Part shown: positions 8,674-31,259 of the stretch, one piece after another
Layout of the letters: each line of letters begins with the position of its first letter
How positions within the stretch are numbered: the first letter of the stretch is position 1
Assembly: GCA_964505555.1 (NCBI GenBank)
Contig: CAZDIO010000102.1
Span: forward strand, 13,355-77,354
Length of the DNA: 64,000 bases
Direction: 5' to 3'
Origin: an uncultured Bdellovibrionales bacterium
GTDB taxonomy: Bacteria > Bdellovibrionota_C > UBA2361 > SZUA-149 > CAZDIO01
The notes under the pieces: model-generated
What the model saw: only the letters and a program-made list of their open reading frames with translations
What the model was told of the DNA's origin: nothing
The model's database searches: none
Made by a program: the position numbers and the translations under genes

Positions 8674-9963
8674 ATGATATTCTCCTTACTTCCGATGTTT
8701 GTTGTCACCACCACTTCTGTCGTAATGCTCTTGGTATGGGGGCTTTCGCAACGTTTCAACCTGCACTCATTGCACAACATTTTTATCCTTATTTGGGCAT
8801 ACTATACGTTTTGTGTCCCGTTGGATTTGATGTTTTTCCCTGAATTACTTTCTCCCTCAGTCGGTGGCATGCCTAATCTCGGAGATGAAACCTTCGGAGA
8901 TGAGATAGGAATTACATTTTTTCATTATCTGATACTTGGCGGCTCATTTTTTTTAATCTACCACTTTCTGCCGGGTGGATCTCATAAAAACCCCAGGTGG
9001 AAATTATTGGAACTTCCTCTTCCCCCTCTCTGGGTGGTGATTACTTTAAATACGTTGGTCTTCGTAGCCTCAGTGGTGCTCATCGGCAGCCTTTCGCGAA
9101 GCGAAGCCGCGCTCTTGGGTGCGACAAATGTTTCATATAAGTTTTTTACGATCCTCACTACATTCGTTCAGGCGCTTAATATTATTTATGTTCATGAGAT
9201 TAACGACCGACGGAAAGCGCTTCTCATAGTACTTGCTTCATTTCTTTTTACACTCGCCACTGGTGGTCGAACGACTTTTGTAATTTTCATGCTCATCTTT
9301 CTCATCCGTTATGAAATACCGATTTCACGAGTTGGGCGAATTGTAACCGGAGTACTCGCCATTTGTTTTGCTGCTTTTTGGAAATTAATCTGGAGCAGTT
9401 TATCCCAGATGATTTTTTTTGGAGGCTCGGCTTCTGCGCTTTTAGACTTACCCTCTGTGACGGTTTCTAACTTTGAGGGGATCGGTCCCTATGAAATATC
9501 GGTATCCCTTCTTCGTCACTGGGGCTCCTCCCCTTGGTTACTGGGAGAGACCTATATCGTTACTCCGTTGCAATTATTGTTCCCACGTTTTCTTAGTTGG
9601 GAGCCGGTACAAACGCTTGCCGAATATTATGGTCAGTTATTCTCGCCAAACTTTGTTGCTCTTGGTGGTGGTATTGGTTTTTCAGCCGTTGGCGAGGCTT
9701 GGCTTAATTTTTCCCACTTTGGGCCTTTTTTACTCGGCTTGGTTTTTGGTTATATCGCTAAATATTATGACAGCCACCCGCGAGGATTGAGTTATTGGAT
9801 AGTCGTTATTGTTTTCTGTAGATTGTTTCGTTCAGATTTTGCTTCCATTTTTAAGAGTTGGTTGCTGATCTTGGGAATCTCTATACTTGTGGTAACAGTA
9901 TGTCTAAGGCTGCTTGGTGAGTTGCAGGCCAAAATGCTGACACAATGCAAGGAAAACCATTGA
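8674..9963 (+). CDS. Polytopic membrane protein, candidate O-antigen/oligosaccharide repeat-unit polymerase (Wzy-like)
   Basis: 429 aa with at least 10 predicted TM segments. Encoded divergently from the GT4 gene inside the glycan cluster. No motif-level confirmation. Confidence 0.35.
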   Translation: MIFSLLPMFVVTTTSVVMLLVWGLSQRFNLHSLHNIFILIWAYYTFCVPLDLMFFPELLSPSVGGMPNLGDETFGDEIGITFFHYLILGGSFFLIYHFLPGGSHKNPRWKLLELPLPPLWVVITLNTLVFVASVVLIGSLSRSEAALLGATNVSYKFFTILTTFVQALNIIYVHEINDRRKALLIVLASFLFTLATGGRTTFVIFMLIFLIRYEIPISRVGRIVTGVLAICFAAFWKLIWSSLSQMIFFGGSASALLDLPSVTVSNFEGIGPYEISVSLLRHWGSSPWLLGETYIVTPLQLLFPRFLSWEPVQTLAEYYGQLFSPNFVALGGGIGFSAVGEAWLNFSHFGPFLLGLVFGYIAKYYDSHPRGLSYWIVVIVFCRLFRSDFASIFKSWLLILGISILVVTVCLRLLGELQAKMLTQCKENH

Positions 9964-10010: not shown

Positions 10011-11399
10011 ATGAGATACAGCACACGAATAATATTTCTTCTCTTTCTCTGCTACGTCGTGCTTTTTTGGCTCAATGGCTTAGGCTTTCGTCGGAAAGGA
10101 TACGTCCAAGATGATGCTCTTCAACATGTAATGTATGCTTACAATTTAGTTCATCACGGAGTAATCTCAGATGTACAATGCAGTAAGGAACCGGCCCCAG
10201 AAGCATGCAACCGCTCCCCAAGCGCCTATCGTGGTCCAGGCTATCCCTTCTTTCTCGCTCTCAACATTGCATTGAATCCCAAACTGCGCGCGCTTGACGA
10301 ACAACAGATTGTAAAACCTGAATTCCTTAATCCCCTTAGAAACAGTGAACTGTTGCTTCTCTGGCTCACTTCGATTTTCATTTATAAAATTGTATTTATT
10401 TTGACACAAAGAAGATTTCCCGCATTTGTTGCGCTCCTGAGCGTTGGTTTTAATCCGATTCTCCTAGACTATCAGAATGAATTTTATTCGGAAAATTTCG
10501 GCGCCCTTTTGGTTACAATCCTTTCTTACGCACTGCTCATGGCATACAGAAGTGGCCGATATAGATATTATGGATTGAGTGGATTTCTTACCGGTTGTTT
10601 GACATTAACGATCCCCATTTTTTACTACCTCCCATGGCTTTTTATAATCGTTTCCTTTGGTTTATCTCGAAGCAAAAAGATTCATTATCAACAATGGCTG
10701 AAAACTTCAGGGATATTTTTGATTTGTTTCGCGGGTGTTGTGCTTCCTTGGATGGTGCGTAACTACCTCCATTTTGATCGGTTCTACATTACAGAGCGTG
10801 CTGGAGCGATGCTCAACGTTCGTGCGGAGAAAGATCTCATGAATAAAAAAGAGTTTTTTGCGGCGTTTTGTTATTGGAGCAACTGTTCTTTTTTACAGAG
10901 TTTAAGAAAACCATTTGAGAATGATCCCGCATTTCATCGCCTTATTCGCGGCAATCCAGATAGTTTCTATCGAACCGGAAGAGTTCGCCGATTGGAACTA
11001 AACCGTGAGCATGGTCCGGTGGTGGCAGACAAACTATTACTTCGAGAAGCAGTAGAAAAAATTACTTCGCATCCATTTCGACATCTTGCAGTAACCCTCC
11101 CGGTGATGTTTCGTGGCATGGGAATGCAAAGCTGTGGACTAGATTTTATTCTTTTTGGAAGCACATTACTGTTGTTCCTTGCTTCAATTGCGAAACGTGA
11201 TGGACAACTTTTTATTCTCTTATTACCAACCGCTTACTGCTATGCTTTTTATAGCTTGGTAACTTACCATCTCCCACGGTACAGCCTACCACTTTTGCCA
11301 ATGTTTTGGGTCGCCACAATTGTGGCTCTTTATCGTCTGACAAAGAGAATGGAAACTAACAAAGACGATATGTTCCAAAGCTCTCTTACCAACACTTAG
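10011..11399 (+). CDS. Polytopic membrane protein, GT-C-like (ArnT/PMT-type) candidate glycosyltransferase
   Basis: 462 aa with many N-terminal TM helices and a short conserved acidic loop near the N-terminus (YVQDDALQHV). Assignment is by architecture only. Confidence 0.3.
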   Translation: MRYSTRIIFLLFLCYVVLFWLNGLGFRRKGYVQDDALQHVMYAYNLVHHGVISDVQCSKEPAPEACNRSPSAYRGPGYPFFLALNIALNPKLRALDEQQIVKPEFLNPLRNSELLLLWLTSIFIYKIVFILTQRRFPAFVALLSVGFNPILLDYQNEFYSENFGALLVTILSYALLMAYRSGRYRYYGLSGFLTGCLTLTIPIFYYLPWLFIIVSFGLSRSKKIHYQQWLKTSGIFLICFAGVVLPWMVRNYLHFDRFYITERAGAMLNVRAEKDLMNKKEFFAAFCYWSNCSFLQSLRKPFENDPAFHRLIRGNPDSFYRTGRVRRLELNREHGPVVADKLLLREAVEKITSHPFRHLAVTLPVMFRGMGMQSCGLDFILFGSTLLLFLASIAKRDGQLFILLLPTAYCYAFYSLVTYHLPRYSLPLLPMFWVATIVALYRLTKRMETNKDDMFQSSLTNT

Positions 11400-12752: not shown

Positions 12753-13727
12753 ATGCAACTAACGGGAAAAACAGTTCTTGTAACTGGTGGTGCAGGATTC
12801 ATTGGCAGTCATATCGTTGATGAATGCCTAAAGCGTGATGCAAAAAAAGTCATTGTGCTTGATAATTTTGTAATCGGCCACAATACCAATATTACCCATC
12901 TTGAGAATAATACTCGGGTGAAAATTGAAGCTGGGGATGTAAGAGATTTTGACTCTGTTTCTCCTCTTGTTCGCTCAGCTGACATTGTCTTTCATGAAGC
13001 AGCTTCCAAGCTTGTTGTTTCACGCACCCGACCTCGAATTGATCTGGAAACAAATGTAATCGGCACTTTCAATGTGCTTGAAGCCGCGCGGGGAAATAAT
13101 ACACTTATTGTTCACGCTTCTACAGGCTCTGTCCTAGGAAGCGGAGATGATGCAATGAAGGAGCAACACCCTCATAACCCAAGCACCCTTTATGGAATCA
13201 GTAAAAGCACAGCAGAACGGTACTGCCAATTCTATGCGCGCGAATTTGGGGTTCGAGTAGGAATCCTTCGTTACTTTCACGTTTTTGGCCCAAGACAAGA
13301 CTTCGATGGGGAGGCAGGCGTGGTAAGTATCTTTCTTGGTCGTGTACTTCGTAAAGAACCTCCAATTATCTTTGGAACTGGAGAGCAGATTAGATGCCTT
13401 ACTTTTGTAAAAGATGACGTGCAGGCTAATTTTTTACTGCTCAATGAACTTGCGAAAGGAAATTACCTTGGAGAAGTTTTTAATGTTGCCTCAAAAACAC
13501 GCATCGAAGTTGGTGAATTGGCCAAGATGATTATTAGCAAATATGGCCCGGTAAATATGAAACCACAATATGGTCCCTCTCGTCCGGGAGAAAATCTTCG
13601 TCCGATTCCAGATACAGCGAAGATTGAGAGCTTAGGTTTTCGTGAATCCGTAACTTTTGAGCAAGGGTTAGAACACACAAAACAGTGGGTAGAACAAAAA
13701 CTTCATCGGCCTACAGGTTCTTCATGA
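12753..13727 (+). CDS. NAD-dependent sugar epimerase/dehydratase (extended SDR)
   Basis: VLVTGGAGFIGSHIV and a catalytic YGISKSTAERY (YxxxK). Confidence 0.85.
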   Translation: MQLTGKTVLVTGGAGFIGSHIVDECLKRDAKKVIVLDNFVIGHNTNITHLENNTRVKIEAGDVRDFDSVSPLVRSADIVFHEAASKLVVSRTRPRIDLETNVIGTFNVLEAARGNNTLIVHASTGSVLGSGDDAMKEQHPHNPSTLYGISKSTAERYCQFYAREFGVRVGILRYFHVFGPRQDFDGEAGVVSIFLGRVLRKEPPIIFGTGEQIRCLTFVKDDVQANFLLLNELAKGNYLGEVFNVASKTRIEVGELAKMIISKYGPVNMKPQYGPSRPGENLRPIPDTAKIESLGFRESVTFEQGLEHTKQWVEQKLHRPTGSS

Positions 13728-14803
13728 AGAAGCTCAGTTGGCTACAGCTCGTTGGCGTAGTCATTATCGCGCGAATTATTTACAAGCTTGATTTTCAGCA
13801 ATTCTTATCTGTTTTTTCAAATGTTGATTTTCAAGCTCTTACTCTCTCCGCAATATGTTTACTGATTTTTGGTCTCAGTAAAAGTATTCGGTGGTATTCT
13901 TTTTTGCGAATACAAAAATTGCCGCTCCGATTGTTTCAAACGATTAACATCTATCTTATCGGCCAGCTATTTTCTCTTGTAACACCAGCAAAGCTTGGTG
14001 AATTTATCAAGGTTTTCTATGTTGAAAAAGAAACGCCAGTAAATCATTCGCAGGCACTTTCTAGTGTTGTTGCGGATCGTTTATGTGACTTACTCATGCT
14101 TTTTAGTATCGCAATCATTTGTATTCAAGAGAACTTCCTTCCAAAACCATACCAAACCCCGTGCGAGATTGTTAGCGGCCTACTTCTCCTTTCCCTCCTC
14201 CTTCTTCTTCACCGCCGTTCTGCCCTTGTACTGTACGACCTGATTAAGCGCTTGCCGTTTATTGGTTCATATTTCGCAATCAGCCGTAAATTTTTTTCTG
14301 ATTTCTATAATAGCTTCTCACAGTTTAAGTGTAGGATGGTAATCATTCCGATCGCCTTAACTTTTTCAGCTTATCTTTTTCTTTTCTTTCACGCATATTA
14401 CCTTGCTCAAGCCTTACGGATTGATATGACATTGAAAGAAACTGTTTTCTGTATCACGATTTCAAATATCGCAGCACTTCTTCCTATTTCAGTAGGAGGA
14501 TTAGGGCCACGAGAGCAAGCAATGAAGGAGTTTTTCACACGTGTACTTCCTCGGGGAAATACTCTCTCTACAGAAGCACTCTCGTATTTGAGCGCATCTG
14601 CTGTCGGCTTCTCACTTGCTTTTTATGGAATGTTTTTGCTCACTGCTGGTGTTTTTGGGTATATTGCATGGCTGCGAAATCCGGTAAGTTTGTCAAGCGT
14701 ACAACGCCTTGCTGACGAGATTCGATTACAAACAACAAAGCATCGACGAGAAGAAGTTTCTCTTGTGGAAGTAGGTGAGGTTAACGAGGCATGCCACCAA
14801 TAA
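13724..14803 (+). CDS. Integral membrane protein with a flippase-like (lysyl-PG synthase TM region / UPF0104-like) architecture
   Basis: Its ATG at 13724 overlaps the TGA of the epimerase gene (ATGA). About 8 TM segments. This family is often paired with GT2 polyprenyl-phosphate glycosyltransferases. Confidence 0.45.
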   Translation: MKKLSWLQLVGVVIIARIIYKLDFQQFLSVFSNVDFQALTLSAICLLIFGLSKSIRWYSFLRIQKLPLRLFQTINIYLIGQLFSLVTPAKLGEFIKVFYVEKETPVNHSQALSSVVADRLCDLLMLFSIAIICIQENFLPKPYQTPCEIVSGLLLLSLLLLLHRRSALVLYDLIKRLPFIGSYFAISRKFFSDFYNSFSQFKCRMVIIPIALTFSAYLFLFFHAYYLAQALRIDMTLKETVFCITISNIAALLPISVGGLGPREQAMKEFFTRVLPRGNTLSTEALSYLSASAVGFSLAFYGMFLLTAGVFGYIAWLRNPVSLSSVQRLADEIRLQTTKHRREEVSLVEVGEVNEACHQ

Positions 14804-15564
14804 ATTCTCAAGCTGCGGCAGTTGCATCTCCCGAATTGAACGCTCAAGCTCGACCGCGAGTCGCAGTCATTATTCCTGTCTATAATGAAGAAAAAGTTAT
14901 CGGACGAGTTCTTGATGCCATTCCACGAGAACATGTTGATGTGGTGATCGTGGTTGATGATGGTTCAACTGATTCGACCCCAACTGAATTAGAAAAAAGA
15001 GATGTTCAGGTCATCCGTCACGAGAAACAACTCTTTATCGGGGCGGCTATTCGAGATGGACTTCGGAAGGCAAAAGAGCTGGGAATAGACATTGTGTGCG
15101 TTTTTGCCGGGAACGGAAAGGACGATCCTCAAGAATTACCATTATTACTTCGACCGATCATCGAACAAGGTTATGATTTTGTCCAAGGCTCTCGCTATCT
15201 TCCGGGTGGGCGATCCGGAAAAATGCCTCGTCATCGTCGGATCGTAACAAAGGTTTACCCACTTCTTGTGAGATTTTTCACCGGAGTCAAGATTACTGAT
15301 GGAACTAATGGATTTCGGGCTTATCGCTTACAACTCCTTGATGATCCGGAGATAGATCTCGATCAGCCATGGCTCAGTGAGTGCCTAGAGTATTATTTTT
15401 CACTCAGAGTGTTTCAGCAAGGGTATTCAGTGACCGAAGTCCCTGTTTCAAAAATCTATCCTGATACTGCTGTGTATAGTGAGTATACAAAAGTTCGTCC
15501 CGGAATTGGATGGCTCAATCGCCTTAAACCACTTTTTTTTCTTGGTTTCCGCCTGAGAAAGTAA
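14791..15564 (+). CDS. Glycosyltransferase family 2 (DPM1-like polyprenyl-phosphate sugar synthase type)
   Basis: RVAVIIPVYNEEKVIGRVLDAIP...VVIVVDDGSTDST, with DxD-type motifs. Confidence 0.85.
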   Translation: MPPINSQAAAVASPELNAQARPRVAVIIPVYNEEKVIGRVLDAIPREHVDVVIVVDDGSTDSTPTELEKRDVQVIRHEKQLFIGAAIRDGLRKAKELGIDIVCVFAGNGKDDPQELPLLLRPIIEQGYDFVQGSRYLPGGRSGKMPRHRRIVTKVYPLLVRFFTGVKITDGTNGFRAYRLQLLDDPEIDLDQPWLSECLEYYFSLRVFQQGYSVTEVPVSKIYPDTAVYSEYTKVRPGIGWLNRLKPLFFLGFRLRK

Positions 15565-20101: not shown

Positions 20102-21352
20102 TCACAGTAACAAAATTACGTTACCACTAAAGAGCATTACTATAAAAAAAACACTGGGAATCAATGGTGCCCACCTTTCGCAAACACCTACTTTTAAAAG
20201 CAACTGCGAATTCAAAATGATTGCAAAGAGAATAAAGAACGCTCCTAATTGCAACAATAGTCGTCCTTGAATTGCTAACTCCGTAGTGAGCGCAAGGGGA
20301 AGGTATGTCGATACAAGGAGCACTGGAGTAGCAAAAAGAATCAATCGAGAGACACCAGGACAGATAGTCTTCCCGCTTAGTTCCATTCCAAAGACTGCTC
20401 CAAAAAGTGCTAAAATATATGCCATCATCAAGGAGACTAAATACCACTCGGGAAGACTTCCAAGCTGTCGCCATCCACCCCAGGTCGTTCTCCATACGTA
20501 AGGAAGCTCCTTGATACGGCGTTTTGTTAGTTCTTCATTGAAGTATGCTCCAGGAATCTCAAGCGTTCCCTCTCCTTTAAATGTTGAGCGCATCAGCGCT
20601 AAGTGATCTTTACCAGCAAGAATATGTCCATTCCCAAGTTCTTTATATACCCAAAAATGAAACCAACCAGAAAATACGAGGGGAAGAGCAAGAGCAAGAC
20701 CGATGCTTCGCCATTTGAAAGAAAATTTCTCTGATCCTTTTACCATGCGATAAAGAAAAACTCCCAAGAGAAGAACTCCCACAGGAAAAGTGTTGTATTT
20801 TGCATGAGCAATCAGCGAAAGTGCTAATCCAACAAGAACTCCCTCTCGGAGATGGAACTTCGTGGTTTGCACTACACGAAAGAGAACAACTATTCCAAAT
20901 GTCGCGGCACAGATTGAAAATGAATCTGCATTTATGTAACCATGAATATAGCGAAGTTGAGGGATTAAGTTAATGCTTAGCGCTGATAATAACGATACGG
21001 TTTTTGAATAAAATATCTGCTGCGTTAGCGCTAAACAGAGAAAAAATTGAATCAATGCATAGACACAGCCTCCTAGTCGAATTACGGTTCTCTTTGAAGC
21101 GGTATCTACGTGTTTTGATATCCAAGCAAAGGGAAGATAGATCAGATACGGCACAGGAGAAAATAAATGATAGGCATGTCCACGATGTGTTCCGTACTGA
21201 GTATCTTTCCAAGAAGCAAGCCGTAATTGAACAGCATAATGCTCTACCATATGGAGGTGATTCCCCTCATCCGGAGCATCCTTTATACGAAAGGCTAAAA
21301 AGGCCGATATTGAGACTACCAAAAAACACGCCACCAGTATTGAACCCTTCAT
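20102..21352 (-). CDS. Polytopic membrane protein (GT-C-like candidate), last gene of a four- or five-gene minus-strand operon
   Basis: 416 aa with more than 10 TM segments. The start overlaps the upstream gene by 4 nt. Confidence 0.3.
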   Translation of the reverse strand: MKGSILVACFLVVSISAFLAFRIKDAPDEGNHLHMVEHYAVQLRLASWKDTQYGTHRGHAYHLFSPVPYLIYLPFAWISKHVDTASKRTVIRLGGCVYALIQFFLCLALTQQIFYSKTVSLLSALSINLIPQLRYIHGYINADSFSICAATFGIVVLFRVVQTTKFHLREGVLVGLALSLIAHAKYNTFPVGVLLLGVFLYRMVKGSEKFSFKWRSIGLALALPLVFSGWFHFWVYKELGNGHILAGKDHLALMRSTFKGEGTLEIPGAYFNEELTKRRIKELPYVWRTTWGGWRQLGSLPEWYLVSLMMAYILALFGAVFGMELSGKTICPGVSRLILFATPVLLVSTYLPLALTTELAIQGRLLLQLGAFFILFAIILNSQLLLKVGVCERWAPLIPSVFFIVMLFSGNVILLL

Positions 21353-22146
21353 AGCATCTCCAAGGAAACTCGGTGAATGACTGCTTTTGTTTTTGTTTCG
21401 CTAGTACTGCGATGAATAAGATCGATTATGACCTCTTTACTTTTTGTTCCTTTCCTTTGTTCTTCATTGAGATCAAAGCGAAAGTCTAATCGAAAGGGGT
21501 TTTCTACTACACGTTTTAAAGTAAATGAGCTTTGCTCGATCGCCCGATTATGACTCTTCACCGCGATCTCAATTACGCTTTCATTTTTCTTATTTCTGAC
21601 AAATGCCTCCACAGAAAAACGATACGACCCCTCTGTAAGAACGTAATGAAATTGTCGATGCTCATTCACATTCAGCATCGTACTTTCATAAAGCGGCGAA
21701 TAGAGAAACGGTCGGCTATATTCGATAGGAATCTCCTCTCCAGAACGAAGAGGAGTAAGCGCGGCTTTTTCCAGATCAAAAAAGACAAGATGCCAGTTTT
21801 TAAAAGTACTCGTATGAGACGAAACGTCAGGGAATTGTTGTAAAACATCTTCTCTCATTATCGCTGCAGGGACTTGATGAACTGAGAAAAATTGTAGGGA
21901 GAGCCTCTCCTCATGATACAAGACCGGAGTAATTTTCTGATTGAGAAACGATGAGACCTGATCTCTCATTTCAAATGGTATTCCTACCCGAGCGGGTTCC
22001 TTCAAGGATACTTTGGATAAAAGGTTTTTGGTAATCTGCTGGTAGATATGTTTGTTCCATGCATGAGACCCAACAACACTCAAGGCAATGGCAAAAACAA
22101 AAAGAATGAAGAGATCAATTAAATAGAGATAACCCGTTTTGCTCAT
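21349..22146 (-). CDS. Membrane-anchored hypothetical protein (N-terminal TM, extracytoplasmic domain)
   Basis: A single N-terminal TM (YLYLIDLFILFVFAIALSVV). No recognisable motif. It is tightly packed between the sulfatase gene and the membrane-protein gene. Confidence 0.4.
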   Translation of the reverse strand: MSKTGYLYLIDLFILFVFAIALSVVGSHAWNKHIYQQITKNLLSKVSLKEPARVGIPFEMRDQVSSFLNQKITPVLYHEERLSLQFFSVHQVPAAIMREDVLQQFPDVSSHTSTFKNWHLVFFDLEKAALTPLRSGEEIPIEYSRPFLYSPLYESTMLNVNEHRQFHYVLTEGSYRFSVEAFVRNKKNESVIEIAVKSHNRAIEQSSFTLKRVVENPFRLDFRFDLNEEQRKGTKSKEVIIDLIHRSTSETKTKAVIHRVSLEML

Positions 22147-22152
22147 AAGATT

Positions 22153-24027
22153 CTACGGAACCCCAGCGAAAAGTGCTGGGTCAAACCCCTTTGCTGTAAG
22201 GTGCCCGAGTAAGAATCCTCTCATTTCTTCTCCTGAAGGGATTTCTTTTTTGGGACATGAAGCAGTGTGTCCTTTGATGTGCTTAGTAACAAAGCGTTTT
22301 TTTCTAAAATCGAGTTGAAATATCTGATCACAAACCACACTACCAATCGAGCCGATACTCTGTATCGGGGAAAGTGAGGGGAACTTCTCAAATCCTCTAT
22401 TGCCCCGCCTGTGAAATGCACTATTTGAAGCAACACTAATGATTGGGCGTTGTTTCCCTTCTCCATTTTTGAGTAACGACTCTCCTTCCATCCAGTGGGG
22501 CTTTTCAATACCAAGATAGTCCAAGATAGTCGGCGCAATATCTAAGTTCTGAACATTCCGGGTTATTCTTCCCTGATATGTTTTTTTCGGGAACCGGACG
22601 AGTAAGGGAAGTCTTTCATCTGTTTTAAAACCCTTTCCATGATCGGTATGCACAATAAGTAAGGTATCTTCTAAAAGATCTTCTTTTATTAGCAACGAAA
22701 CCATCTGCTCTAGATAGTGATCAAAATCAAGAATGGCGTCATCATAAAAATCTCTCATCCATTCCTTTGTCTGCTCCCTTCCTCCTGAGAACATTTGGGT
22801 GGTTGGAAGATACTTTGGTCCATGGGTTCCGATAAGATGGAGATGAATAAAAAAGGGGCGCGGCAGACGGGTGATGTTTTTTAAAACTAACTCTATCCTT
22901 TCGGGATCCAGTTGATGAATATAGTTTGCCTGCACGACCTGATCGTACTCGTTAATCATGTTTCGAATTCCGTACGCATGAAACAGCCGATCTTCAAGTC
23001 GGTGATAGATCTGACTTAGAAAATACTCAACAAGTCCAAATCGCTTAAAAAAACTAAATTTTGTCTCACGGATCTGTCGATTATTTGCCTCATCAAATGC
23101 ATCCCTCATTCCCAGATCGTAAGGGTCAGCATAGTGCCTCATACTAATATCGACGTTGTAGTACCCTTGGCGACGAAGAATTCCGGGGAGATGTTCATAC
23201 GCGGCACTTCCTCGCAAAATATCAGGGGGATAGAGAAGCTTTGTCTCAGTAGGAAGTTTCCCAGTAAGAATCGAAGCTAGTGAGCACCCGGTATTAGCGC
23301 AATTGGTAAATGCATTTTCAAAAACGAGACTCTCCTCACCAAGTTTTTGAAGATACTCCGTCGTTTTTCGTTCATACCCATAGAGCGATAAATTCGATGC
23401 ATTTAAACCATCAGAGGAGATAAGCATAATATTTGGAAGTAAATCGTGAGGAGAATTTTTTGGGTGCGAAGTTTCATTCAATGCTATTGAGCCCCCACGA
23501 AAGTTTGAAACACAGAGGATTCCTAAAGAGAGAACGAAGAACGAAAGTGCCACTCTATGCTGAACTTTTAAAGATCGTTCTTCGCCGTCGTTTTTAGCCA
23601 TCGTTCTATAGATTCCAAAAAACAAAACGATAAACAGCCCCCCATAGAGAAATCGCCAAGAACCTGCGGTAGAGATTACCCCGAGATGAAATACTGAATA
23701 AGTGAAATTATCGATTAAAAGAAATATTGAGGAGGTAAGCACCACGGCTGAAAAAATCGTCACCAACGTAACGATTCTTTTTTTCCCAAAAAACACGGCG
23801 AGAGGAAGAGAGAAGACAAGAAGAAACAGTGCTCCAAAAAAAATCCCCACAAGGGGGGAGAGCGAAAGAACAAGGAGCTTTTCACCCCATGAGACAGGGG
23901 AGAGAAACGATGGTTTGGTTACAAAAAATAACCACTCCATCGAGACAAGAAAATAACAACTGAGAATCGCTGGAGAAGTTAACAGAATAATTCGTTTGAC
24001 ATTCACTTCGCAAACTGGCGCACGCAC
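22153..24027 (-). CDS. Membrane-anchored sulfatase / alkaline-phosphatase-superfamily transferase (LtaS/EptA/OpgB-like)
   Basis: An N-terminal block of about 5 TM segments, then a sulfatase-type domain (MLISSDGLN...; HLIGTHGPKY metal or nucleophile region). Confidence 0.7.
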   Translation of the reverse strand: MRAPVCEVNVKRIILLTSPAILSCYFLVSMEWLFFVTKPSFLSPVSWGEKLLVLSLSPLVGIFFGALFLLVFSLPLAVFFGKKRIVTLVTIFSAVVLTSSIFLLIDNFTYSVFHLGVISTAGSWRFLYGGLFIVLFFGIYRTMAKNDGEERSLKVQHRVALSFFVLSLGILCVSNFRGGSIALNETSHPKNSPHDLLPNIMLISSDGLNASNLSLYGYERKTTEYLQKLGEESLVFENAFTNCANTGCSLASILTGKLPTETKLLYPPDILRGSAAYEHLPGILRRQGYYNVDISMRHYADPYDLGMRDAFDEANNRQIRETKFSFFKRFGLVEYFLSQIYHRLEDRLFHAYGIRNMINEYDQVVQANYIHQLDPERIELVLKNITRLPRPFFIHLHLIGTHGPKYLPTTQMFSGGREQTKEWMRDFYDDAILDFDHYLEQMVSLLIKEDLLEDTLLIVHTDHGKGFKTDERLPLLVRFPKKTYQGRITRNVQNLDIAPTILDYLGIEKPHWMEGESLLKNGEGKQRPIISVASNSAFHRRGNRGFEKFPSLSPIQSIGSIGSVVCDQIFQLDFRKKRFVTKHIKGHTASCPKKEIPSGEEMRGFLLGHLTAKGFDPALFAGVP

Positions 24028-25436
24028 GAATAGAGAATTCTTGTGTTTGACTGAAGCTGTTCTTTCTTTTCAATACGATAATACTTACTCAAACAAGTTT
24101 CAAAATTCTCAATACTATAGTCCCAATAGATGTCCTCTTTATTCTGGAGGAGTCTTTTTACCATTACATCTTCTTTGGTGACAAACTCGATCACGAGATC
24201 TGATTCGAGAGTTGAAAGCCACTGAACAAGCTCATCAAGAGGAATATTTGCAGAGATCACCAGGTGATGAATCAATGCGAGTGCTAAGATGAGTTCCGGT
24301 TTTTCTCGATTGGTGATGCTCTTTCGTTCTAATCCACGCCAACCAAGATTCGGTGAAGGATCAGAGATATCAGAAACTAACGGAAGAATTTTTCTATTCC
24401 CCTCCTCCGCAAGTTGTCGATACAAACGCTCTATCGAGAGATGATCACTATCAAAAGCAACTACGTAGTCCGCGTTCTTTGCAGCAATTCGTGAATACCT
24501 TCCCGTATTGCACCCAAGATCCCACACAAGGTGTCGATGCTTCTGACTTACTACCGTATCAACAAATCGCACCTTTGCTTGATCATCTGCATCGGTATAG
24601 CTTGTCTGCGTAACATAATCTGCCCACACGGAGGTAGATTCCTTCCAAGTCAACGAGGAAACAAGTGCTCGTAACCGTTTTGCGTTTGCCTGAATAAGCT
24701 CGTGATGAAACCCTGCGGCTTTTAATTCGGCTTTTATATTTGTCTTTGTTCCAGAAAGTGCGTTTTTTAATTTATTATGGAGATAGACATGCTTAAAAAC
24801 GCCTCCTTTAAAAAGATCAAAGAAGCCAAGTAAGCGGTTCATCTCTTCAATTTCAATCCCATCGAGTCTCCCTCGGAGCCATCGTTGAAAAGAAACGTTC
24901 TTATACGCCTGAAGAAACAGCGGATAGAGAAACAATTGACAGAACTGTCGGTACCCTGCCCAGGGAGTTCCCGGTTGCCATTTTTCAAAGGAACAAACAT
25001 CAATAAATACTGGGAGGCACCCTTGCCATTGAACATTAAAAGAAGAGGCATCTTTTAATGTCATCTGCTCCTTGAGCGCAGCAATCAAGAGATCAAGCTG
25101 CAAAAGTGCTGCAGCTTTGAGCATGCTAAAGCTCCATTCATACGGATAAGAAAGAAAGGGAATTCGTTCATGTCGTAACACTCCGTGCCATTCTTGGTCG
25201 AAGCGCACTCCCTCAAACGTCGCCTCTTTAGTAGCAACAAGCTGACCGGTGTTAAGAAAGCTCTGAAAGAAATGTGTCTTTTTTAGAAAGAGAAAATCAT
25301 CGTATGCTTTCTTACTCAGCACCCGATAAACTTCCCCATCCCGATAGACAACCCTCCCTTCTCGATCACGAAAGGAGCCCGGCTCATAGATTAATTCTGG
25401 AGCGCTTTCTACGCTTTTCACTCCGAGGACAGACAT
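24003..25436 (-). CDS. Two-domain protein: unknown N-terminal domain (about 270 aa) fused to a class I SAM-dependent methyltransferase
   Basis: C-terminal motif I VWDLGCNTGRYSRIAAKNADYVVAFDSD. It overlaps the sulfatase gene by 25 nt. Confidence 0.5.
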   Translation of the reverse strand: MSVLGVKSVESAPELIYEPGSFRDREGRVVYRDGEVYRVLSKKAYDDFLFLKKTHFFQSFLNTGQLVATKEATFEGVRFDQEWHGVLRHERIPFLSYPYEWSFSMLKAAALLQLDLLIAALKEQMTLKDASSFNVQWQGCLPVFIDVCSFEKWQPGTPWAGYRQFCQLFLYPLFLQAYKNVSFQRWLRGRLDGIEIEEMNRLLGFFDLFKGGVFKHVYLHNKLKNALSGTKTNIKAELKAAGFHHELIQANAKRLRALVSSLTWKESTSVWADYVTQTSYTDADDQAKVRFVDTVVSQKHRHLVWDLGCNTGRYSRIAAKNADYVVAFDSDHLSIERLYRQLAEEGNRKILPLVSDISDPSPNLGWRGLERKSITNREKPELILALALIHHLVISANIPLDELVQWLSTLESDLVIEFVTKEDVMVKRLLQNKEDIYWDYSIENFETCLSKYYRIEKKEQLQSNTRILYSCVRQFAK

Positions 25437-25441
25437 ATAAA

Positions 25442-25705
25442 CTACTTTGAAGCGGCCCGTTTTGGAGTTTGGTTTTCATCCTCAGAAGAGAGTTCCTCAT
25501 TGGAGGCATCCTTACTTCCCTTTGAGTGAAAAAATCCCATAATCCTCCCCCAGAACAATTTAAAAACAACTCCCGCTCCTGCAACACCAGCAAGGATAGC
25601 TTGTAGCAAAATACTTCCCGTTCCTGGATCAAGATAAGCAAACGCTTTGGTGGGATAGAACAGAGGAGAGAAAACAAATAGGGCTATTAAGAACAATACT
25701 CTCAT
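25442..25705 (-). CDS. Small membrane or secreted protein heading the operon
   Basis: 87 aa. N-terminal hydrophobic segment MRVLFLIALFVFSPLF, a conserved-looking AYLDPGTGS motif, a Gly/Ala-rich TM segment, and an acidic, Ser-rich tail. Confidence 0.35.
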   Translation of the reverse strand: MRVLFLIALFVFSPLFYPTKAFAYLDPGTGSILLQAILAGVAGAGVVFKLFWGRIMGFFHSKGSKDASNEELSSEDENQTPKRAASK

Positions 25706-25788: not shown

Positions 25789-26904
25789 ATGTATTTGCGA
25801 AGACACTATGGAAACACTGTGGAGCCCCTAAGATTCTTGAAGTTTATACTGATGGAAGCTATAAAAGCCCAAATGAAAGTGGTAATTCAGATCCCCTGCT
25901 TCAATGAAGCAAGCACTCTTCCCCTTGTTTTTAACGACATGCCTCGTTCTATTCCTGGAGTCGATATCCTCGAGTATCAGATCATTGATGATGGCTCTAC
26001 AGATGGAACCGCTGAGGTTGCTCGTAAATTAGGTGTCCATTATGTCGTAAATGTTGGTTCGCCAAATCGTCGATGGCTTGGAAGGGCATTTAAGTTAGGG
26101 ATTGATAATGCACTCAAAAATGGCGCGGACATCGTTGTCAACACTGATGGAGATAACCAGTATCCATCGTTTCTTATCCCAACACTCATCGAACCGATCC
26201 TCAATGGACGCGCTGACATCGTCATCGGAGATAGAGATCCGGGAGCTGTTGAAGAGTTTTCTATGCTCAAACGTTTCTTACAAAGACTCGGAAACCGCAC
26301 TATCCAGTATTTGACAGGAGAGCCTGCGCGAGATGCCGTCAGTGGCTTTCGTGCCTACAGTAGAGAGGCACTTTTAAAACTTCATGTTTTTACAAACTAT
26401 ACCTACACGGTAGACACCTTGATCCAGGCGAGAAAAAAAGGTTTAGAGATCGCCTGGATAAAAGCAAGCCCGAATAGAAAAACGCGAGATTCCCGATTAA
26501 TTACGAGTTTAAGCAGTAAGGTGCGGAAATCTGTGGCAACAATTCTCCGGCTGACTACTGTGTATGAGCCCTTTAAAACATTTTTATTTTTTAGCATCGC
26601 TTTCTTGCTTCCTGGGCTTCTCCTCTTGTCTCGATTTGGGTACTACTATTTCTTTGTGCCATTTGAGGCTAAGGGGCATATCCAATCGGTAGTAGTAGGA
26701 TGTGTGCTCATTGTAATCGCTGTGCAGATGTTTGTACTTGGGATATTAGCGGATCTGCTTGCTGTCAATCGACACTTCGTTGAAGAGCTCTTGACCCGAA
26801 TGCGACGTCTTGAAATTACAATCGAAAAATCTCATAAGTTCCCAGAAGCAAAAGAGCACGGATTAACACAAACCGAGAACGAAAAATTACGCATTAACGC
26901 TTAA
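25789..26904 (+). CDS. GT2 polyprenyl-phosphate glycosyltransferase with C-terminal TM anchor (GtrB/ArnC-like). The true start is probably the internal Met (MEAIKAQMKVVI...).
   Basis: VVIQIPCFNEASTLP...IIDDGSTDGT catalytic domain plus two C-terminal TM helices, as in GtrB/ArnC. Confidence 0.8.
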   Translation: MYLRRHYGNTVEPLRFLKFILMEAIKAQMKVVIQIPCFNEASTLPLVFNDMPRSIPGVDILEYQIIDDGSTDGTAEVARKLGVHYVVNVGSPNRRWLGRAFKLGIDNALKNGADIVVNTDGDNQYPSFLIPTLIEPILNGRADIVIGDRDPGAVEEFSMLKRFLQRLGNRTIQYLTGEPARDAVSGFRAYSREALLKLHVFTNYTYTVDTLIQARKKGLEIAWIKASPNRKTRDSRLITSLSSKVRKSVATILRLTTVYEPFKTFLFFSIAFLLPGLLLLSRFGYYYFFVPFEAKGHIQSVVVGCVLIVIAVQMFVLGILADLLAVNRHFVEELLTRMRRLEITIEKSHKFPEAKEHGLTQTENEKLRINA

Positions 26905-26923: not shown

Positions 26924-27412
26924 ATGTTTCGCTCAAAGTTTACAAAGAAGGTGCTGGTAATTCTCATCATCGTTTTTTTATTGAGTGGTTGTAGTAGCAT
27001 GCGCTCAGCAAAGCCAACACGAGAGATGCAGATTGCCGTAGCCCTGGTCGCCTTTGAGTACCTTAATAACGTCATTCAAACCAATATCGGCTATCTTCAA
27101 TCTGCGGTGGTCTGGGATGATTATTCAAAAAATATTGGGGTCTCCAAAGATCAGTACCGTTCTCAGTTAGCATTACTTCGAGACACCTCCACTCCGACAA
27201 CTCACCCCCTGGTGGATCTCGATCTTGTTGAGACAAAAATTCATGGTGACGATGCAGAGGTTCTTGTTCAAAAGCATAAACAACCAGATGCCCCGATAAT
27301 TTCAATCAAGCTTCACTGGTCAGGGGAAGCTTGGTTAGTGGTTGAAGATTCGATTTTTGGAAGAAACGGACTTATCGCAACTCACGCTGCAAAAAACAAA
27401 ACGGTAAGTTAA
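26924..27412 (+). CDS. Lipoprotein of unknown function
   Basis: Signal peptide with lipobox LLSGCSS. 162 aa. Confidence 0.5.
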   Translation: MFRSKFTKKVLVILIIVFLLSGCSSMRSAKPTREMQIAVALVAFEYLNNVIQTNIGYLQSAVVWDDYSKNIGVSKDQYRSQLALLRDTSTPTTHPLVDLDLVETKIHGDDAEVLVQKHKQPDAPIISIKLHWSGEAWLVVEDSIFGRNGLIATHAAKNKTVS

Positions 27413-27421
27413 GTATTCCGA

Positions 27422-29185
27422 GTGTCACTTCTTTACCGCGATCTTCGGAGCTTTCTCCAAGCACTTCAAAAAGAAAAGGTGCTTGTGGAGATTCATGCGC
27501 CAGTGGACCCACACTTAGAGCTTGCAGAAATTCATCGCAGAGTTATCGAACAAAACGGACCTGCTCTTTTATTTACTCAGGTAAAAGGAGGTCGTTATCC
27601 GGTTGTTACAAATCTCTTTGGAACAAAAAAACGGGTGGATCTCGCCTTTGGTCAAAACGGTCCTGCTCTTGTTCAGCAAGCCGTAGAGCTCGTATGGGAG
27701 CTTTTTCCCCCAAGCTACTCAGCACTTTGGGAGAAACGAAATCTGCTCAAACAATTCTTCTCTTTGGGCAGCGACTCAATTAAAAATGCTCCTGTCCTTG
27801 AGGTCCATGAAAGCCCGCCAATGTTATCTCAGCTCCCTCTTCTTACCACCTGGGAACAAGATGGTGGACCGTTTATAACACTCCCTCTCGTGTACACTGA
27901 GCACCCAGAGACTGGCATTTCAAATCTCGGCATCTATCGCATGCAGCGCTACGACGATCAAACCACCGGGATGCATATGCAGATCGGAAAAGGCGGGGGA
28001 TTTCATCTTGCCCGTGCAAAAGAGTTAGGGAAAAAACTCCCGGTGAATGTTTTTGTAGGAGGCGCCCCAGCAACAATTCTTGCCGCTATTGCTCCATTAC
28101 CTGAAAATATCCCAGAGATTCTCCTTGCCTCGTTTGTGCTTGGGGAAAAGCTTCGTGTTACAAAAAACCCTGCTGGTTCCCTACCCCTCTTTGCGGATGC
28201 GGAGTTTGCGCTTACAGGTTTTGTTGATCCTTTAGAAACTCTTCCAGAAGGACCATTTGGTGATCACTACGGGTATTATTCGCTCAAGCATGATTTCCCC
28301 GTATTTCGTTGCCAGTCAGTATTTCATCGAAAAGACGCGATCTATCCGGCAACCGTCGTTGGAAAACCACGACAGGAGGATTTTTTTATTGGCGATTACT
28401 TACAGGAACTCCTCGCCCCAATTTTTCCAATCGTCATGCCCACGATAAAAAATATCTGGAGTTACGGCGAAACCGGTTTTCATTCCCTTGCTGCTGCCGT
28501 AATTACAGAACGTTATAAGAGAGAAGCAATGGTCAGCGCTTTTCGAATCCTTGGAGAAGGTCAGTTGTCACTAACAAAGTTTCTCCTTCTTGTTGATCAA
28601 GCACTTGATTTAAAAGATTTCCGCTCTGTCTTTGAGCATGTTCTTGAACGAGCAGATTTTCGCTCCGATCTCTACGTATTTTCTCACACTTCGATGGATA
28701 CTCTTGATTATACCGGTCCAAGACTCAATGAAGGGAGTAAAGGGGTGCTCCTCGGAATTGGAAACCCAATTCGTTCACTCCCTGCTGAGTTTCATGAAAC
28801 ACCACCAAATGATATTGATGCCGTTTTTGTGTTTTGCCGGGGATGTCTTGTCATCAGTGGACCAAGCTACACTGCGGATAAAGATGCTCCCCAACGTCTT
28901 GCAAATCATCCCGCATTTTCAAAGTGGCCAATAATAGTCCTCTGCGATAACGCTGAATTTACTGCAAAAGAAAGTAGCTCATTTCTTTGGAGTACGTTTA
29001 CTCGATTTGAGCCCGCTTCAGATATCTATGCAAAGCAGGTATCTCTTCGAGCTTTACATCCAAGTTTTGAATCTCCGATCGTCATTGATTCGCGAATGAA
29101 GCCAAATTATCCTGAAGAACTTTTTTGTGATCCAAACACAAAAAAACTCGTCGACGATCGCTGGTCGGAATACTTTAAAAGCTAG
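27422..29185 (+). CDS. UbiD-family (prenylated-FMN-dependent) decarboxylase
   Basis: N-terminus DLRSFLQALQKEKVLVEIHAPVDPHLELAEIHRRV and GGPFITLPLVYTEHPETGISNLGIYRMQ match UbiD-family architecture. 587 aa. Confidence 0.7.
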   Translation: MSLLYRDLRSFLQALQKEKVLVEIHAPVDPHLELAEIHRRVIEQNGPALLFTQVKGGRYPVVTNLFGTKKRVDLAFGQNGPALVQQAVELVWELFPPSYSALWEKRNLLKQFFSLGSDSIKNAPVLEVHESPPMLSQLPLLTTWEQDGGPFITLPLVYTEHPETGISNLGIYRMQRYDDQTTGMHMQIGKGGGFHLARAKELGKKLPVNVFVGGAPATILAAIAPLPENIPEILLASFVLGEKLRVTKNPAGSLPLFADAEFALTGFVDPLETLPEGPFGDHYGYYSLKHDFPVFRCQSVFHRKDAIYPATVVGKPRQEDFFIGDYLQELLAPIFPIVMPTIKNIWSYGETGFHSLAAAVITERYKREAMVSAFRILGEGQLSLTKFLLLVDQALDLKDFRSVFEHVLERADFRSDLYVFSHTSMDTLDYTGPRLNEGSKGVLLGIGNPIRSLPAEFHETPPNDIDAVFVFCRGCLVISGPSYTADKDAPQRLANHPAFSKWPIIVLCDNAEFTAKESSSFLWSTFTRFEPASDIYAKQVSLRALHPSFESPIVIDSRMKPNYPEELFCDPNTKKLVDDRWSEYFKS

Positions 29186-30395: not shown

Positions 30396-31259
30396 CTACT
30401 GCAGCAACGTCAACGCCAAGGCTGGCTGTTGATTTGCTTGTGCTAATACTGAAGCACTTGCTTGCTGGAGAATATTTAGTCGCGTAAGTTCCGCCGCTTC
30501 GAACGCTACGTCAACGTCACGGATTCGACTTTCTGCAGCGAGGAAGTTTTCTCGAGCCACTTGCAAGTTACTAATCGCCACATTCAGCCGACTCTCGGTA
30601 GAACCCAATGTTCCTCGAGACGCTGTCAAACTTCCGATGGCGAGGTTAATAGCATCAAGAGCTGATCGTGCAGAGATCTGAGATTCATTCGCCGTTGCCG
30701 CCAAGATCGAAAACAACGGTATAGAACTCCCCTCAACTGCCAACCCAATTGATGCCAAGGTAGCAGAAACTGCAGAGTAGGATACCTGTGAGGTAGTCTG
30801 CCCATCAAACCCTACCTGAAACACCGTCTGTGCTCCTCCAGAGAGAAGGTTTACACCGTTAAATTCAGTTGTTAAGGCGATTCGCTCAATTTCGCTTGAG
30901 AGCGCGAGAAACTCTAAATGCAACGCAGAACGTTGGGTGTTACTAAATACACCGTTGGCTGATTGTTCAGCAAGCTCTGCAAGCCTTGTTAATACGTTTC
31001 CGATCTGCTCCATCGCACCGTCAGTAATGGAGATCATCGAAACACCATCGCTTGCGTTTCGTATGGCGACAGTAGCTACTCGAGAATCTGAACGCAGCTG
31101 ATCGGCGATCGCAAGTCCAGCAGCATCGTCTGATGCTTTGGTAATTCGCAAACCGGACGACAACCGCTCATAGGCTTTCTGTAAACGATCCGTTGTTGAA
31201 CTTAAGTTTCTCTGCGCAGTAAGCGAGGAAACGTTAGTCCGTATATTAATTGTACCCAT
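30396..31259 (-). CDS. fliC: Flagellin
   Basis: 287 aa. The N-terminal D0/D1 region (INIRTNVSSLTAQRNLSSTTDRLQKAYERLSSGLRITKASDDAAGLAIADQL) and the C-terminal helix (ESRIRDVDVAFEAAELTRLNILQQASASVLAQANQQP) are the canonical flagellin termini. Confidence 0.9.
   Translation of the reverse strand: MGTINIRTNVSSLTAQRNLSSTTDRLQKAYERLSSGLRITKASDDAAGLAIADQLRSDSRVATVAIRNASDGVSMISITDGAMEQIGNVLTRLAELAEQSANGVFSNTQRSALHLEFLALSSEIERIALTTEFNGVNLLSGGAQTVFQVGFDGQTTSQVSYSAVSATLASIGLAVEGSSIPLFSILAATANESQISARSALDAINLAIGSLTASRGTLGSTESRLNVAISNLQVARENFLAAESRIRDVDVAFEAAELTRLNILQQASASVLAQANQQPALALTLLQ

Follow-up and report, generated by a model that had tools for sequence, protein, structure and literature searches.

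What do five genes packed head to tail on the minus strand of an uncultured Bdellovibrionales bacterium do, and do they serve one purpose? The genes occupy positions 20102-25705 of the 64,000-nucleotide (nt) stretch of contig CAZDIO010000102.1 analysed here, to which we refer as the window, and an earlier note had read them as a single envelope-decoration operon. Our analysis leads to a different division. The stretch is one co-directional, probably co-translated gene string made of two units: a trio (unit 1, 22153-25705) encoding a small membrane protein, a kinase-methyltransferase and a membrane phosphotransferase, and a pair (unit 2, 20102-22146) encoding an anchored protein and a DUF2142 protein. 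We are highly confident that unit 1 is a module of the NoeA/NoeB type, known from Legionella as Lani_1193-1195. To the two-unit account as a whole, including the mechanism proposed for it below, we give a probability of roughly 0.5. The features are as follows.

25442-25705, minus strand: small membrane protein (87-residue open reading frame, ORF)
24003-25436, minus strand: NoeA-type kinase-methyltransferase, whole ORF (477 residues)
24612-25436, minus strand: kinase-like N-terminal domain of the NoeA-type protein (residues 1-275)
24003-24611, minus strand: class I S-adenosylmethionine (SAM)-dependent methyltransferase, C-terminal domain (residues ~276-477)
22153-24006 likely (listed ORF 22153-24027, 624 residues, GTG start), minus strand: predicted NoeB-type membrane phosphotransferase (Pfam Sulfatase)
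21349-22146, minus strand: N-terminally anchored 265-residue protein, one transmembrane (TM) segment at residues 7-25
20102-21352, minus strand: DUF2142 polytopic membrane protein, 416 residues (Pfam DUF2142, at least 8 TM segments)
25789-26904, plus strand: divergent GT2 of the polyprenyl-phosphate glycosyltransferase type (Pfam Glycos_transf_2), given as context outside the reported finding

The ORF listing places all five minus-strand ORFs at exactly the coordinates from which the tight packing had been claimed, and the spacings calculated from them are, in gene order, a 5-nt gap, a 25-nt overlap, a 6-nt gap and a 4-nt overlap. These values agree with the earlier ones, but the 25-nt overlap between the methyltransferase and “sulfatase” genes is probably 4 nt. 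An in-frame GTG at 24006 overlaps the methyltransferase stop codon as GTGA (4 nt), and a start at this position leaves 22 residues ahead of the conserved sequence MEWLFF, compared with 22 and 20 in the orthologues from loci L001 and L087. Because of this overlap and the orthologue-like residue count, the phosphotransferase probably starts at GTG 24006 rather than at 24027, the longer overlap being probably an artefact of choosing the earliest in-frame start; its residue numbers nevertheless take the GTG at 24027 as their origin here. Terminator prediction gave no intrinsic site between any of the five genes or just past 20102. From there, 136 nt containing a weak promoter-like site (20011-19983) separate the string from the next gene, which encodes a DegT aminotransferase. 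The GC content of the five-gene stretch matches that of its surroundings, and the window proteins that were checked are singletons in clusters at 90% identity.

The division into two units comes from gene neighbourhoods. A scan of one genome per GTDB species returned at least 598 loci, 80 of which were fetched, and neighbours were counted by profile searches of six-frame translations. The module occurs in at least ten phyla, the fetched loci coming from Gamma-, Alpha- and Deltaproteobacteria, Acidobacteriota, Binatia, Nitrospirota, Thermodesulfovibrionia, Bacteroidota/Rhodothermales, Planctomycetota and Actinomycetota. In 73 of the 78 loci that offered enough sequence, the small gene is located upstream of the kinase-methyltransferase gene and on the same strand; a sulfatase-family ORF is no more than 4 kb from the latter in 51 of 54, and both partners are found in 49 of 54. 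Sulfatase-family ORFs were placed downstream on the same strand (42), upstream on the opposite strand, that is, divergently (13), downstream on the opposite strand (7) or upstream on the same strand (7), and only 4 in the same loci lay more than 4 kb away. When loci were sampled from the small-protein side, all four had the small gene, then a protein of ~470 residues, then a Sulfatase gene. Clustering of all neighbours revealed no other broadly conserved gene. Since the gene order is kept across phyla, the trio arrangement goes beyond chance.

Three observations on individual loci belong here. ORFs in high-GC loci (L036, L054, L066) that looked like kinase-methyltransferase::sulfatase fusions are in our reading artefacts and not fusions, the downstream frame being open upstream by chance. 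In L024 (6829-7688), the small gene and the first ~225 codons of the kinase-methyltransferase gene occur a second time, as an inverted and truncated copy that lies 2.3 kb upstream of the intact module and has the look of a duplication remnant. In Mesorhizobium sp. AaZ16 (L081:11441-12169), a gene for a 242-residue YidC/60KD_IMP-type insertase stands between the kinase-methyltransferase and sulfatase-family genes; it could relate to the membrane insertion of the small, N-out protein.

The two remaining genes of the string behave differently. DUF2142 and the 265-residue protein are encoded in none of 84 trio loci, nor in the 4 loci sampled from the small-protein side, so that the conserved synteny expected for one five-gene pathway holds for the first three genes, which travel together, and fails for the other two. 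It could still be argued that all five genes form a single dedicated pathway for one methylated phospho-glycan, with DUF2142 and the anchored protein as obligatory partners. The tight packing (4-6 nt spacings), the lack of a predicted internal terminator and the position within a glycan cluster flanked by a polyprenyl-phosphate GT2 gene speak for such a pathway, as does the company that the trio keeps in Thermoleophilaceae: 7 loci encode, close to the trio, a GT2 protein 43-50% identical to that of the window, the gene being on the opposite strand and within about 1 kb upstream of the small gene, as in the window, in four of these loci (L038, L049, L079, L082), and further polytopic membrane proteins follow. 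These polytopic proteins, however, show no similarity to the DUF2142, PMT_2 or Wzy-like proteins of the window and were discarded as counterparts, and the 265-residue/DUF2142 pair stands alone in another organism. Together with the count of none in 84, these findings make the single pathway quite unlikely in our judgement.

The identity of unit 1 emerged from annotated plasmids. A tblastn search matched 65 records, 57 of which were Sinorhizobium pSymA with the matching gene annotated noeA. In S. meliloti pSymA the order is nodL, a 71-residue hypothetical ORF, noeA and noeB, the same three-gene core in the same order as the window trio. By BLASTP, the window kinase-methyltransferase is 33% identical to NoeA (476 residues) over 474 of its 477 residues (E 2e-84), and the two share the motifs GSFRD (position 21), YPYEW (97), D129, FID (144), DLGCNTG (307) and HH (391). 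The 71-residue ORF contains VPAHAYLDPGTGSMLVQ, including the AYLDPGTGS motif, and is 46% identical to the window small protein across that motif. It is annotated hypothetical in pSymA of S. meliloti ml47 (L089:5787-6002), where 23 nt are shared between it and the start of noeA. The operon that has always been described as nodL-noeA-noeB thus seems to contain a fourth, conserved gene. NoeB (553 residues) matches PF00884 at 2e-10 and carries a TQVSVP nucleophile motif and a GDHG metal motif; its BLASTP match to the window phosphotransferase is marginal (E 0.01) and confined to the metal-motif region, where the window has HTDHG and NoeB HGDHG. Alphaproteobacterial NoeB-type proteins form a separate BLAST cluster that is joined to the family by iterated profiles, NoeB being a divergent alphaproteobacterial subfamily relative to the window enzyme.

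The noeA and noeB genes are host-range nodulation genes of S. meliloti (Ardourel et al. 1995, PMID 8801423), the only species for which this phenotype is known. In the published account, a nodL mutant polar on noeA/noeB has Nod factors altered only by the loss of O-acetylation, and what noeA and noeB do is stated to be unknown. The S. meliloti operon is under nod box control, comes after the acetyltransferase gene nodL and has an effect on host range that concerns particular Medicago species. By contrast, the window trio lies inside a Wzx/Wzy-type glycan cluster and is followed by the anchored protein and DUF2142 genes.

The family has also been described from another direction. A survey of Legionella kinases (Krysinska et al. 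2022, Sci Rep 12:21782; PMC9758233) presents it as Lani_1194 of Legionella anisa, with a kinase-like domain that has R38 in place of the β3 Lys and retains equivalents of D166, N171 and D184, and with a methyltransferase fused in 94% of about 2000 homologues. By BLAST, the same survey found the small hypothetical Lani_1193 in 65% and Lani_1195, a protein of the alkaline phosphatase (AP) fold, in 38% of 816 neighbourhoods; Lani_1195 matched full-length EptA by HHpred and was described as EptA/YejM-like. It also noted the homology to NoeA/NoeB, compared the family with WbdD and treated the Lani proteins as possible secreted effectors. The kinase-like domain, the fused methyltransferase and the two neighbours of the window trio were found independently and agree with that description, the small window protein corresponding to Lani_1193 and to the 71-residue ORF between nodL and noeA. 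The present work differs in its neighbour rates, the profile and six-frame searches giving 94% for each partner against 65% and 38%, and adds the AYxDPxxGS motif and predicted topology of the small protein, the predicted Thr nucleophile and the His-His match to WbdD. The earlier note would have been contradicted by a known operon, and to that extent it is: the trio maps to nodL-noeA-noeB and to a family published in 2022.

What, then, does the central protein of the trio do? Its first ~270 residues, which the note had called uncharacterised, adopt a protein-kinase-like fold that was revealed by fold comparison only; no Pfam match was obtained for this domain in 40 family members even at E ≤ 5. 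The candidate catalytic residues R38 (replacing the β3 Lys), D129, N134 and D146 are conserved, and equivalents of D166, N171 and D184 of PKA are kept. In the same chain follows a class I SAM methyltransferase domain, for which Pfam and NCBIfam give only a weak match (residues 304-358) and which contains motif I WDLGCNTG, an invariant H390-H391 pair and an invariant Arg-rich loop, SPNLGWRGLER. The family comprises at least 7229 clusters.

The most informative comparison is with WbdD of E. coli O9a, which adds a phosphate to the terminal mannose of a lipid-linked glycan and, in a second step, methylates it (PMC3482155). In profile alignments, the WbdD sequence FHHIV is placed opposite the family-invariant IHHLV (H390/H391 opposite H132/H133 of WbdD) and ILELAVKEEP opposite VIEFVTKEDP. 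H132, H133 and R203 of WbdD are essential for methyl transfer and were proposed to confer the use of a phosphate nucleophile (PMC3482155). WbdD and the window protein thus share a kinase and a methyltransferase in one chain and a His-His pair in the methyltransferase. Unlike WbdD, in which the methyltransferase comes first, the window protein has the order kinase then methyltransferase and lacks a C-terminal coiled coil; no equivalent of R203 was identified in the window family, and WbdD has no conserved small-protein or AP-transferase partners. We take the His-His match as a lead toward phosphate methylation, not as proof of it.

The kinase-methyltransferase could instead be a regulator that modifies, by phosphorylation or methylation, the cytoplasmic loops of the AP transferase or the tail of the small protein as an on/off switch for the transferase, the small protein acting as a tether. 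The precedent is the phosphoethanolamine cellulose system BcsE-BcsF-BcsG, made up of a cytosolic protein, a small single-pass protein and an AP-superfamily transferase that decorates a glycan in the periplasm. The window trio mirrors this tripartite layout, a likeness of architecture, and BcsE is a cyclic di-GMP-binding regulator, not a kinase-methyltransferase. The fold of the kinase-like domain is, among PDB matches, closer to Ser/Thr protein kinases than to small-molecule kinases, a ranking that discriminates little because the PDB is skewed toward eukaryotic-type protein kinases; weak PDB sequence matches of the protein include protein arginine methyltransferases. A fused, invariant methyltransferase with a WbdD-like His-His pair would be unusual in a regulator, and the presumed targets, the cytoplasmic loops of the AP transferase and the small-protein tail, are poorly conserved. 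We assign the regulatory role only a small chance.

The product of the third gene matches Pfam Sulfatase PF00884 at 3e-33, and its best PDB sequence matches are carbohydrate sulfatases. In an alignment to the solved sulfatase 5g2v, however, the position of the formylglycine motif reads T-G-C-S-L, and the motif itself (C/S-x-P-x-R) is absent from the 55 neighbouring homologues, which have Thr (53/55) or Ser (2/55) in the nucleophile column and no Pro-x-Arg. Active-site positions are conserved in the same set: T246 in 53/55 and, as metal ligands, D206 in 55/55, H397 in 54/55, H402 in 54/55, D462 in 54/55 and H463 in 46/55. Five N-terminal TM segments, with basic residues on alternate, predicted cytoplasmic loops, would place the catalytic domain outside the cytoplasm. 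The Thr at the formylglycine position, the conserved metal ligands and the five TM helices together argue that the product is a transferase of the AP superfamily, with Thr246 as its predicted nucleophile, and not a sulfatase.

Here the note's assignment to an LtaS/EptA-like class stands, the Thr nucleophile being present and the sulfatase motif absent. Like EptA/MCR-1, LtaS and OpgB, the window protein combines five N-terminal TM helices with a predicted extracytoplasmic AP-superfamily domain; it also shares their Asp/His metal ligands and the Thr nucleophile, set in the sequence T-x-x-(S/A)-x-P. Enzymes of the window type differ from EptA, LtaS and OpgB in having a cytoplasmic kinase-methyltransferase and a small membrane protein as obligatory partners. 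NCBIfam scores lie far below the equivalog cut-offs (EptA 25.6 bits against 561, CptA 21.6 against 404, MCR-5 16.4 against 1250), and the LtaS and OpgB models gave no match. We therefore rejected an eptA, opgB, arnT or ltaS operon, in line with the note's view that the layout is that of no standard O-antigen, lipoteichoic acid, opgB, eptA or arnT locus. Many partner AP-family proteins are 850-1010 residues long with a long C-terminal extension (L002:11392-14412; also L013, L036 and L048) that is absent from the window protein (617-624 residues) and from the alphaproteobacterial NoeB type (540-577 residues). This suggests at least three AP-enzyme subfamilies, which may differ in their acceptors.

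That the third gene encodes a true formylglycine sulfatase after all, or that the trio is an anti-phage system, we consider very improbable. Apart from the Pfam and PDB matches, which favour the first idea, the second recalls Pgl/BREX type 2, which likewise unites a kinase and a methyltransferase with the AP-fold protein PglZ. The sulfatase was rejected on the missing formylglycine motif and the Thr in 53 of 55 homologues. As to defence, PADLOC returned one marginal match to the methyltransferase domain (mad2, 2.9e-5) and none for the other four proteins, no phage homologues were found, and the AP domain is predicted to lie outside the cytoplasm behind five TM helices; a BREX/Pgl-like system was rejected on these grounds.

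The small protein, for which Pfam and NCBIfam give no match, consists of a signal-peptide-like segment ending in AFA, the AYLDPGTGS motif, one TM helix (ILLQAILAGVAGAGVVF), a basic juxtamembrane stretch and an acidic tail. Its homologues fill at least 7677 clusters; among 120 clusters listed, every entry named by its source is a “hypothetical protein”, and a literature search on motif strings (YLDPGSGS and similar) returned no paper. Across 22 diverse homologues Y24, D26, P27, G30 and S31 are invariant, defining the motif A-Y-x-D-P-x-x-G-S within the family consensus AYLDPGSGSMxLQxxLGGxAGxxVxxKLYWxR. In diderm members a hydrophobic segment of 20-40 residues with a terminal small-x-small (AxA) site precedes the motif Tyr, and in Actinomycetota the protein begins 5-8 residues ahead of the motif; basic residues follow the TM helix in both. 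Because two different sequence routes lead to one predicted topology, the motif is predicted to work at the outer face of the cytoplasmic membrane, beside the AP domain.

The invariance of these residues raises the possibility that the trio modifies its own small protein and nothing else. The transferase would put a phospho-substituent on Ser31 or Tyr24, the modified peptide would be the functional product, and the kinase-methyltransferase would act on the cytoplasmic tail of the small protein or make the donor. Phospho-substituents on proteins have precedents in pilin, modified by PptA, and FlgG, modified by EptC. A module that is self-contained and occurs in unrelated contexts should have a substrate that is universal or encoded by the module itself, and the small-protein family, with at least 7677 clusters, is similar in size to that of the kinase-methyltransferase, with at least 7229. 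Conservation points the same way: the kinase-methyltransferase is 43-59% identical across phyla and the small protein is likewise far better conserved than the AP enzyme, which is 22-42% identical over matched segments. The insertase gene inside the Mesorhizobium module would also fit. There is, however, no direct sign of such a modification, the sequence of the cytoplasmic tail is not conserved, and the repeated embedding of the module in glycan clusters would be left unexplained. Self-modification is in our opinion unlikely, if worth keeping in view.

Unit 2 is a conserved, lineage-specific pair in its own right, outside the trio. The DUF2142 protein matches PF09913 at 5.6e-10 (39 bits against a gathering cut-off of 30.1 bits, residues 50-365), has at least 8 hydrophobic segments and is, by analogy, a putative glycosyltransferase or polymerase of the GT-C type, for which the substrate at the outer face of the membrane would be a sugar linked to polyprenyl phosphate. 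The 265-residue protein has no Pfam or NCBIfam match, and a word-index search without matches had made it appear to be an ORFan; exhaustive HMMER searches overturned this, finding 37 distant representatives of 22-35% identity. The gene of its nearest relative has the same 4-nt overlap with a following ORF that, over its first 42 residues, shares 55% identity with the N-terminus of the window DUF2142 protein, and in a more distant relative the next ORF encodes an MFS-type protein instead. In lactococci and streptococci, the DUF2142 proteins WpsI and WpsJ are proposed cell-wall polysaccharide polymerases or transferases, WpsI having as its partner WpsH, a protein with one TM segment (PMC12599335, PMC9746298). 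The window resembles WpsH/WpsI in having a polytopic DUF2142 protein beside one that has a single TM segment and a large extracytoplasmic portion, both encoded within a glycan cluster that includes GT2 genes; the Wps systems are Gram-positive, unlike the window, and the 265-residue protein is likened to WpsH by layout only.

A candidate supplier of the sugar for DUF2142 is encoded by the divergent gene upstream of the trio. Its product matches Glycos_transf_2 at 1.2e-19 and has C-terminal TM segments at 262-280 and 301-319; its best NCBIfam matches, all below cut-off, are AglJ (a dolichyl-phosphate hexose transferase), PpgS, PgfS and ArnC. It likely supplies the lipid-linked sugar to DUF2142. 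The surroundings are a surface-glycan cluster of the Wzx/Wzy type, with genes for a GT4 glycosyltransferase, a Wzy-like protein, a PMT_2 GT-C protein, an oxidoreductase, an epimerase/dehydratase, an LPG_synthase_TM and GT2 pair, a Wzx-like flippase, two DegT aminotransferases and a hexapeptide acetyltransferase. Since the PMT_2 GT-C-type protein (10011-11399) and the Wzy-like polymerase (8674-9963) are both encoded here, the locus specifies at least two periplasmic-face glycosyl-transfer steps besides DUF2142. The LPG_synthase_TM (flippase-like) gene overlaps the second GT2 gene (13685-15564), and the same pairing adjoins the trio in Thermoleophilaceae (L065:14163-15125). Elsewhere the module has a gene for an acetyltransferase or acyltransferase beside it, NodL in Sinorhizobium and OafA in Legionella.

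Other features of the window touch the module less closely. Downstream of the GT2 gene, on the plus strand and with spacings of 9-20 nt, 26924-29185 encodes a lipoprotein-like ORF of 162 residues (weak LA7/P22 match) and a UbiD-family decarboxylase, for which no relation to the module was found in other loci. The window also contains a flagellin gene (30396-31259) and an SctV/HrcV-type type III export-gate gene (50429-52507), which scores higher with the non-flagellar model than with FlhA, below both cut-offs.

How might these parts work together? In the two-unit account, the kinase domain would phosphorylate a hydroxyl of a membrane-associated glycoconjugate or lipid at the cytoplasmic face, and the methyltransferase domain would then methylate that phosphate in the manner of WbdD. 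At the outer face, the Thr-nucleophile enzyme would move a phospho-substituent from a lipid donor to an acceptor, and the small protein would be the membrane partner that couples the two sides, possibly serving as the acceptor itself. Unit 2, with the divergent polyprenyl-phosphate GT2, would add a sugar to the surface glycan of the surrounding cluster. The account starts from gene structure, folds, conservation of catalytic residues, synteny and homology to noeA/noeB, from which we infer topology, substrates, methyl-phosphate chemistry and physical coupling. The two-sided phospho-decoration with methyl-phosphate chemistry is put forward tentatively, as a proposal somewhat short of even odds. 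The guess of an envelope-decorating pathway in the earlier note survives in so far as the kinase-like fold and the WbdD-like His-His pair lend indirect support to a methylated phospho-substituent, and gives way in that the five genes are not one conserved pathway. A phosphocholine route, through an ethanolamine kinase and a phosphoethanolamine N-methyltransferase, was set aside by reasoning only, no cytidylyltransferase being encoded in the module.

Several points weigh against the two-unit account and its chemistry. The profile match to WbdD is not statistically significant (E 0.046-0.065), and the His-His pair also occurs in NodS or RebM and so is not unique to phosphate methyltransferases (PMC3482155). 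No biochemical activity is known for any family member, and neither interaction among the trio proteins nor cooperation between units 1 and 2 finds support in this analysis. The glycan context, which speaks for the account, is uneven: genes of the GT2, GT4, Wzy_C and Bac_transf kinds were found no farther than 8 kb away in 15 of 49 related loci, and glycan genes also accompany 3 of the 4 loci sampled from the small-protein side; about 70% of the related loci thus have none nearby, and the substrate may be a non-glycan. The higher conservation of the kinase-methyltransferase, too, is better accommodated by a universal substrate or the small protein than by variable glycans. Taken together, the sparse glycan context and the contrast in conservation fit a universal lipid or the small protein at least as well as they fit variable glycans. 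In an extension that we think rather improbable, the trio would be a self-contained, membrane-spanning installer of methyl-phosphate or a related methylated phospho-substituent: a headgroup would be built on a universal inner-leaflet lipid and transferred outside in an EptA-like reaction, with the small protein (Ser31/Tyr24) as covalent acceptor or carrier.

The window trio is a new instance of a widespread family that has been described but is biochemically unsolved, joined here to a lineage-specific GT-C pair. The role of noeA/noeB has been open since 1995, and all that was said of the wider family in 2022 is that it forms a conserved unit whose function is not known. The window adds a new setting, a surface-glycan cluster of a Gram-negative bacterium, and the comparison sharpens the claims that can be made: a near-obligate trio that includes a tiny hypothetical gene, a motif predicted at the outer face, a “sulfatase” with a probable Thr nucleophile and a WbdD-like His-His pair. 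A methyl-phosphate machine with a small-protein acceptor, if it exists, would represent a class of envelope or peptide modification not known before, present in thousands of bacterial lineages, and would explain how noeA/noeB affect host range without a detectable change in Nod factors. Should the proposed chemistry prove true, thousands of genomes from soil, sediment and symbionts would gain an annotation for three genes that are currently labelled “hypothetical”, “class I SAM-dependent methyltransferase” and “sulfatase”.

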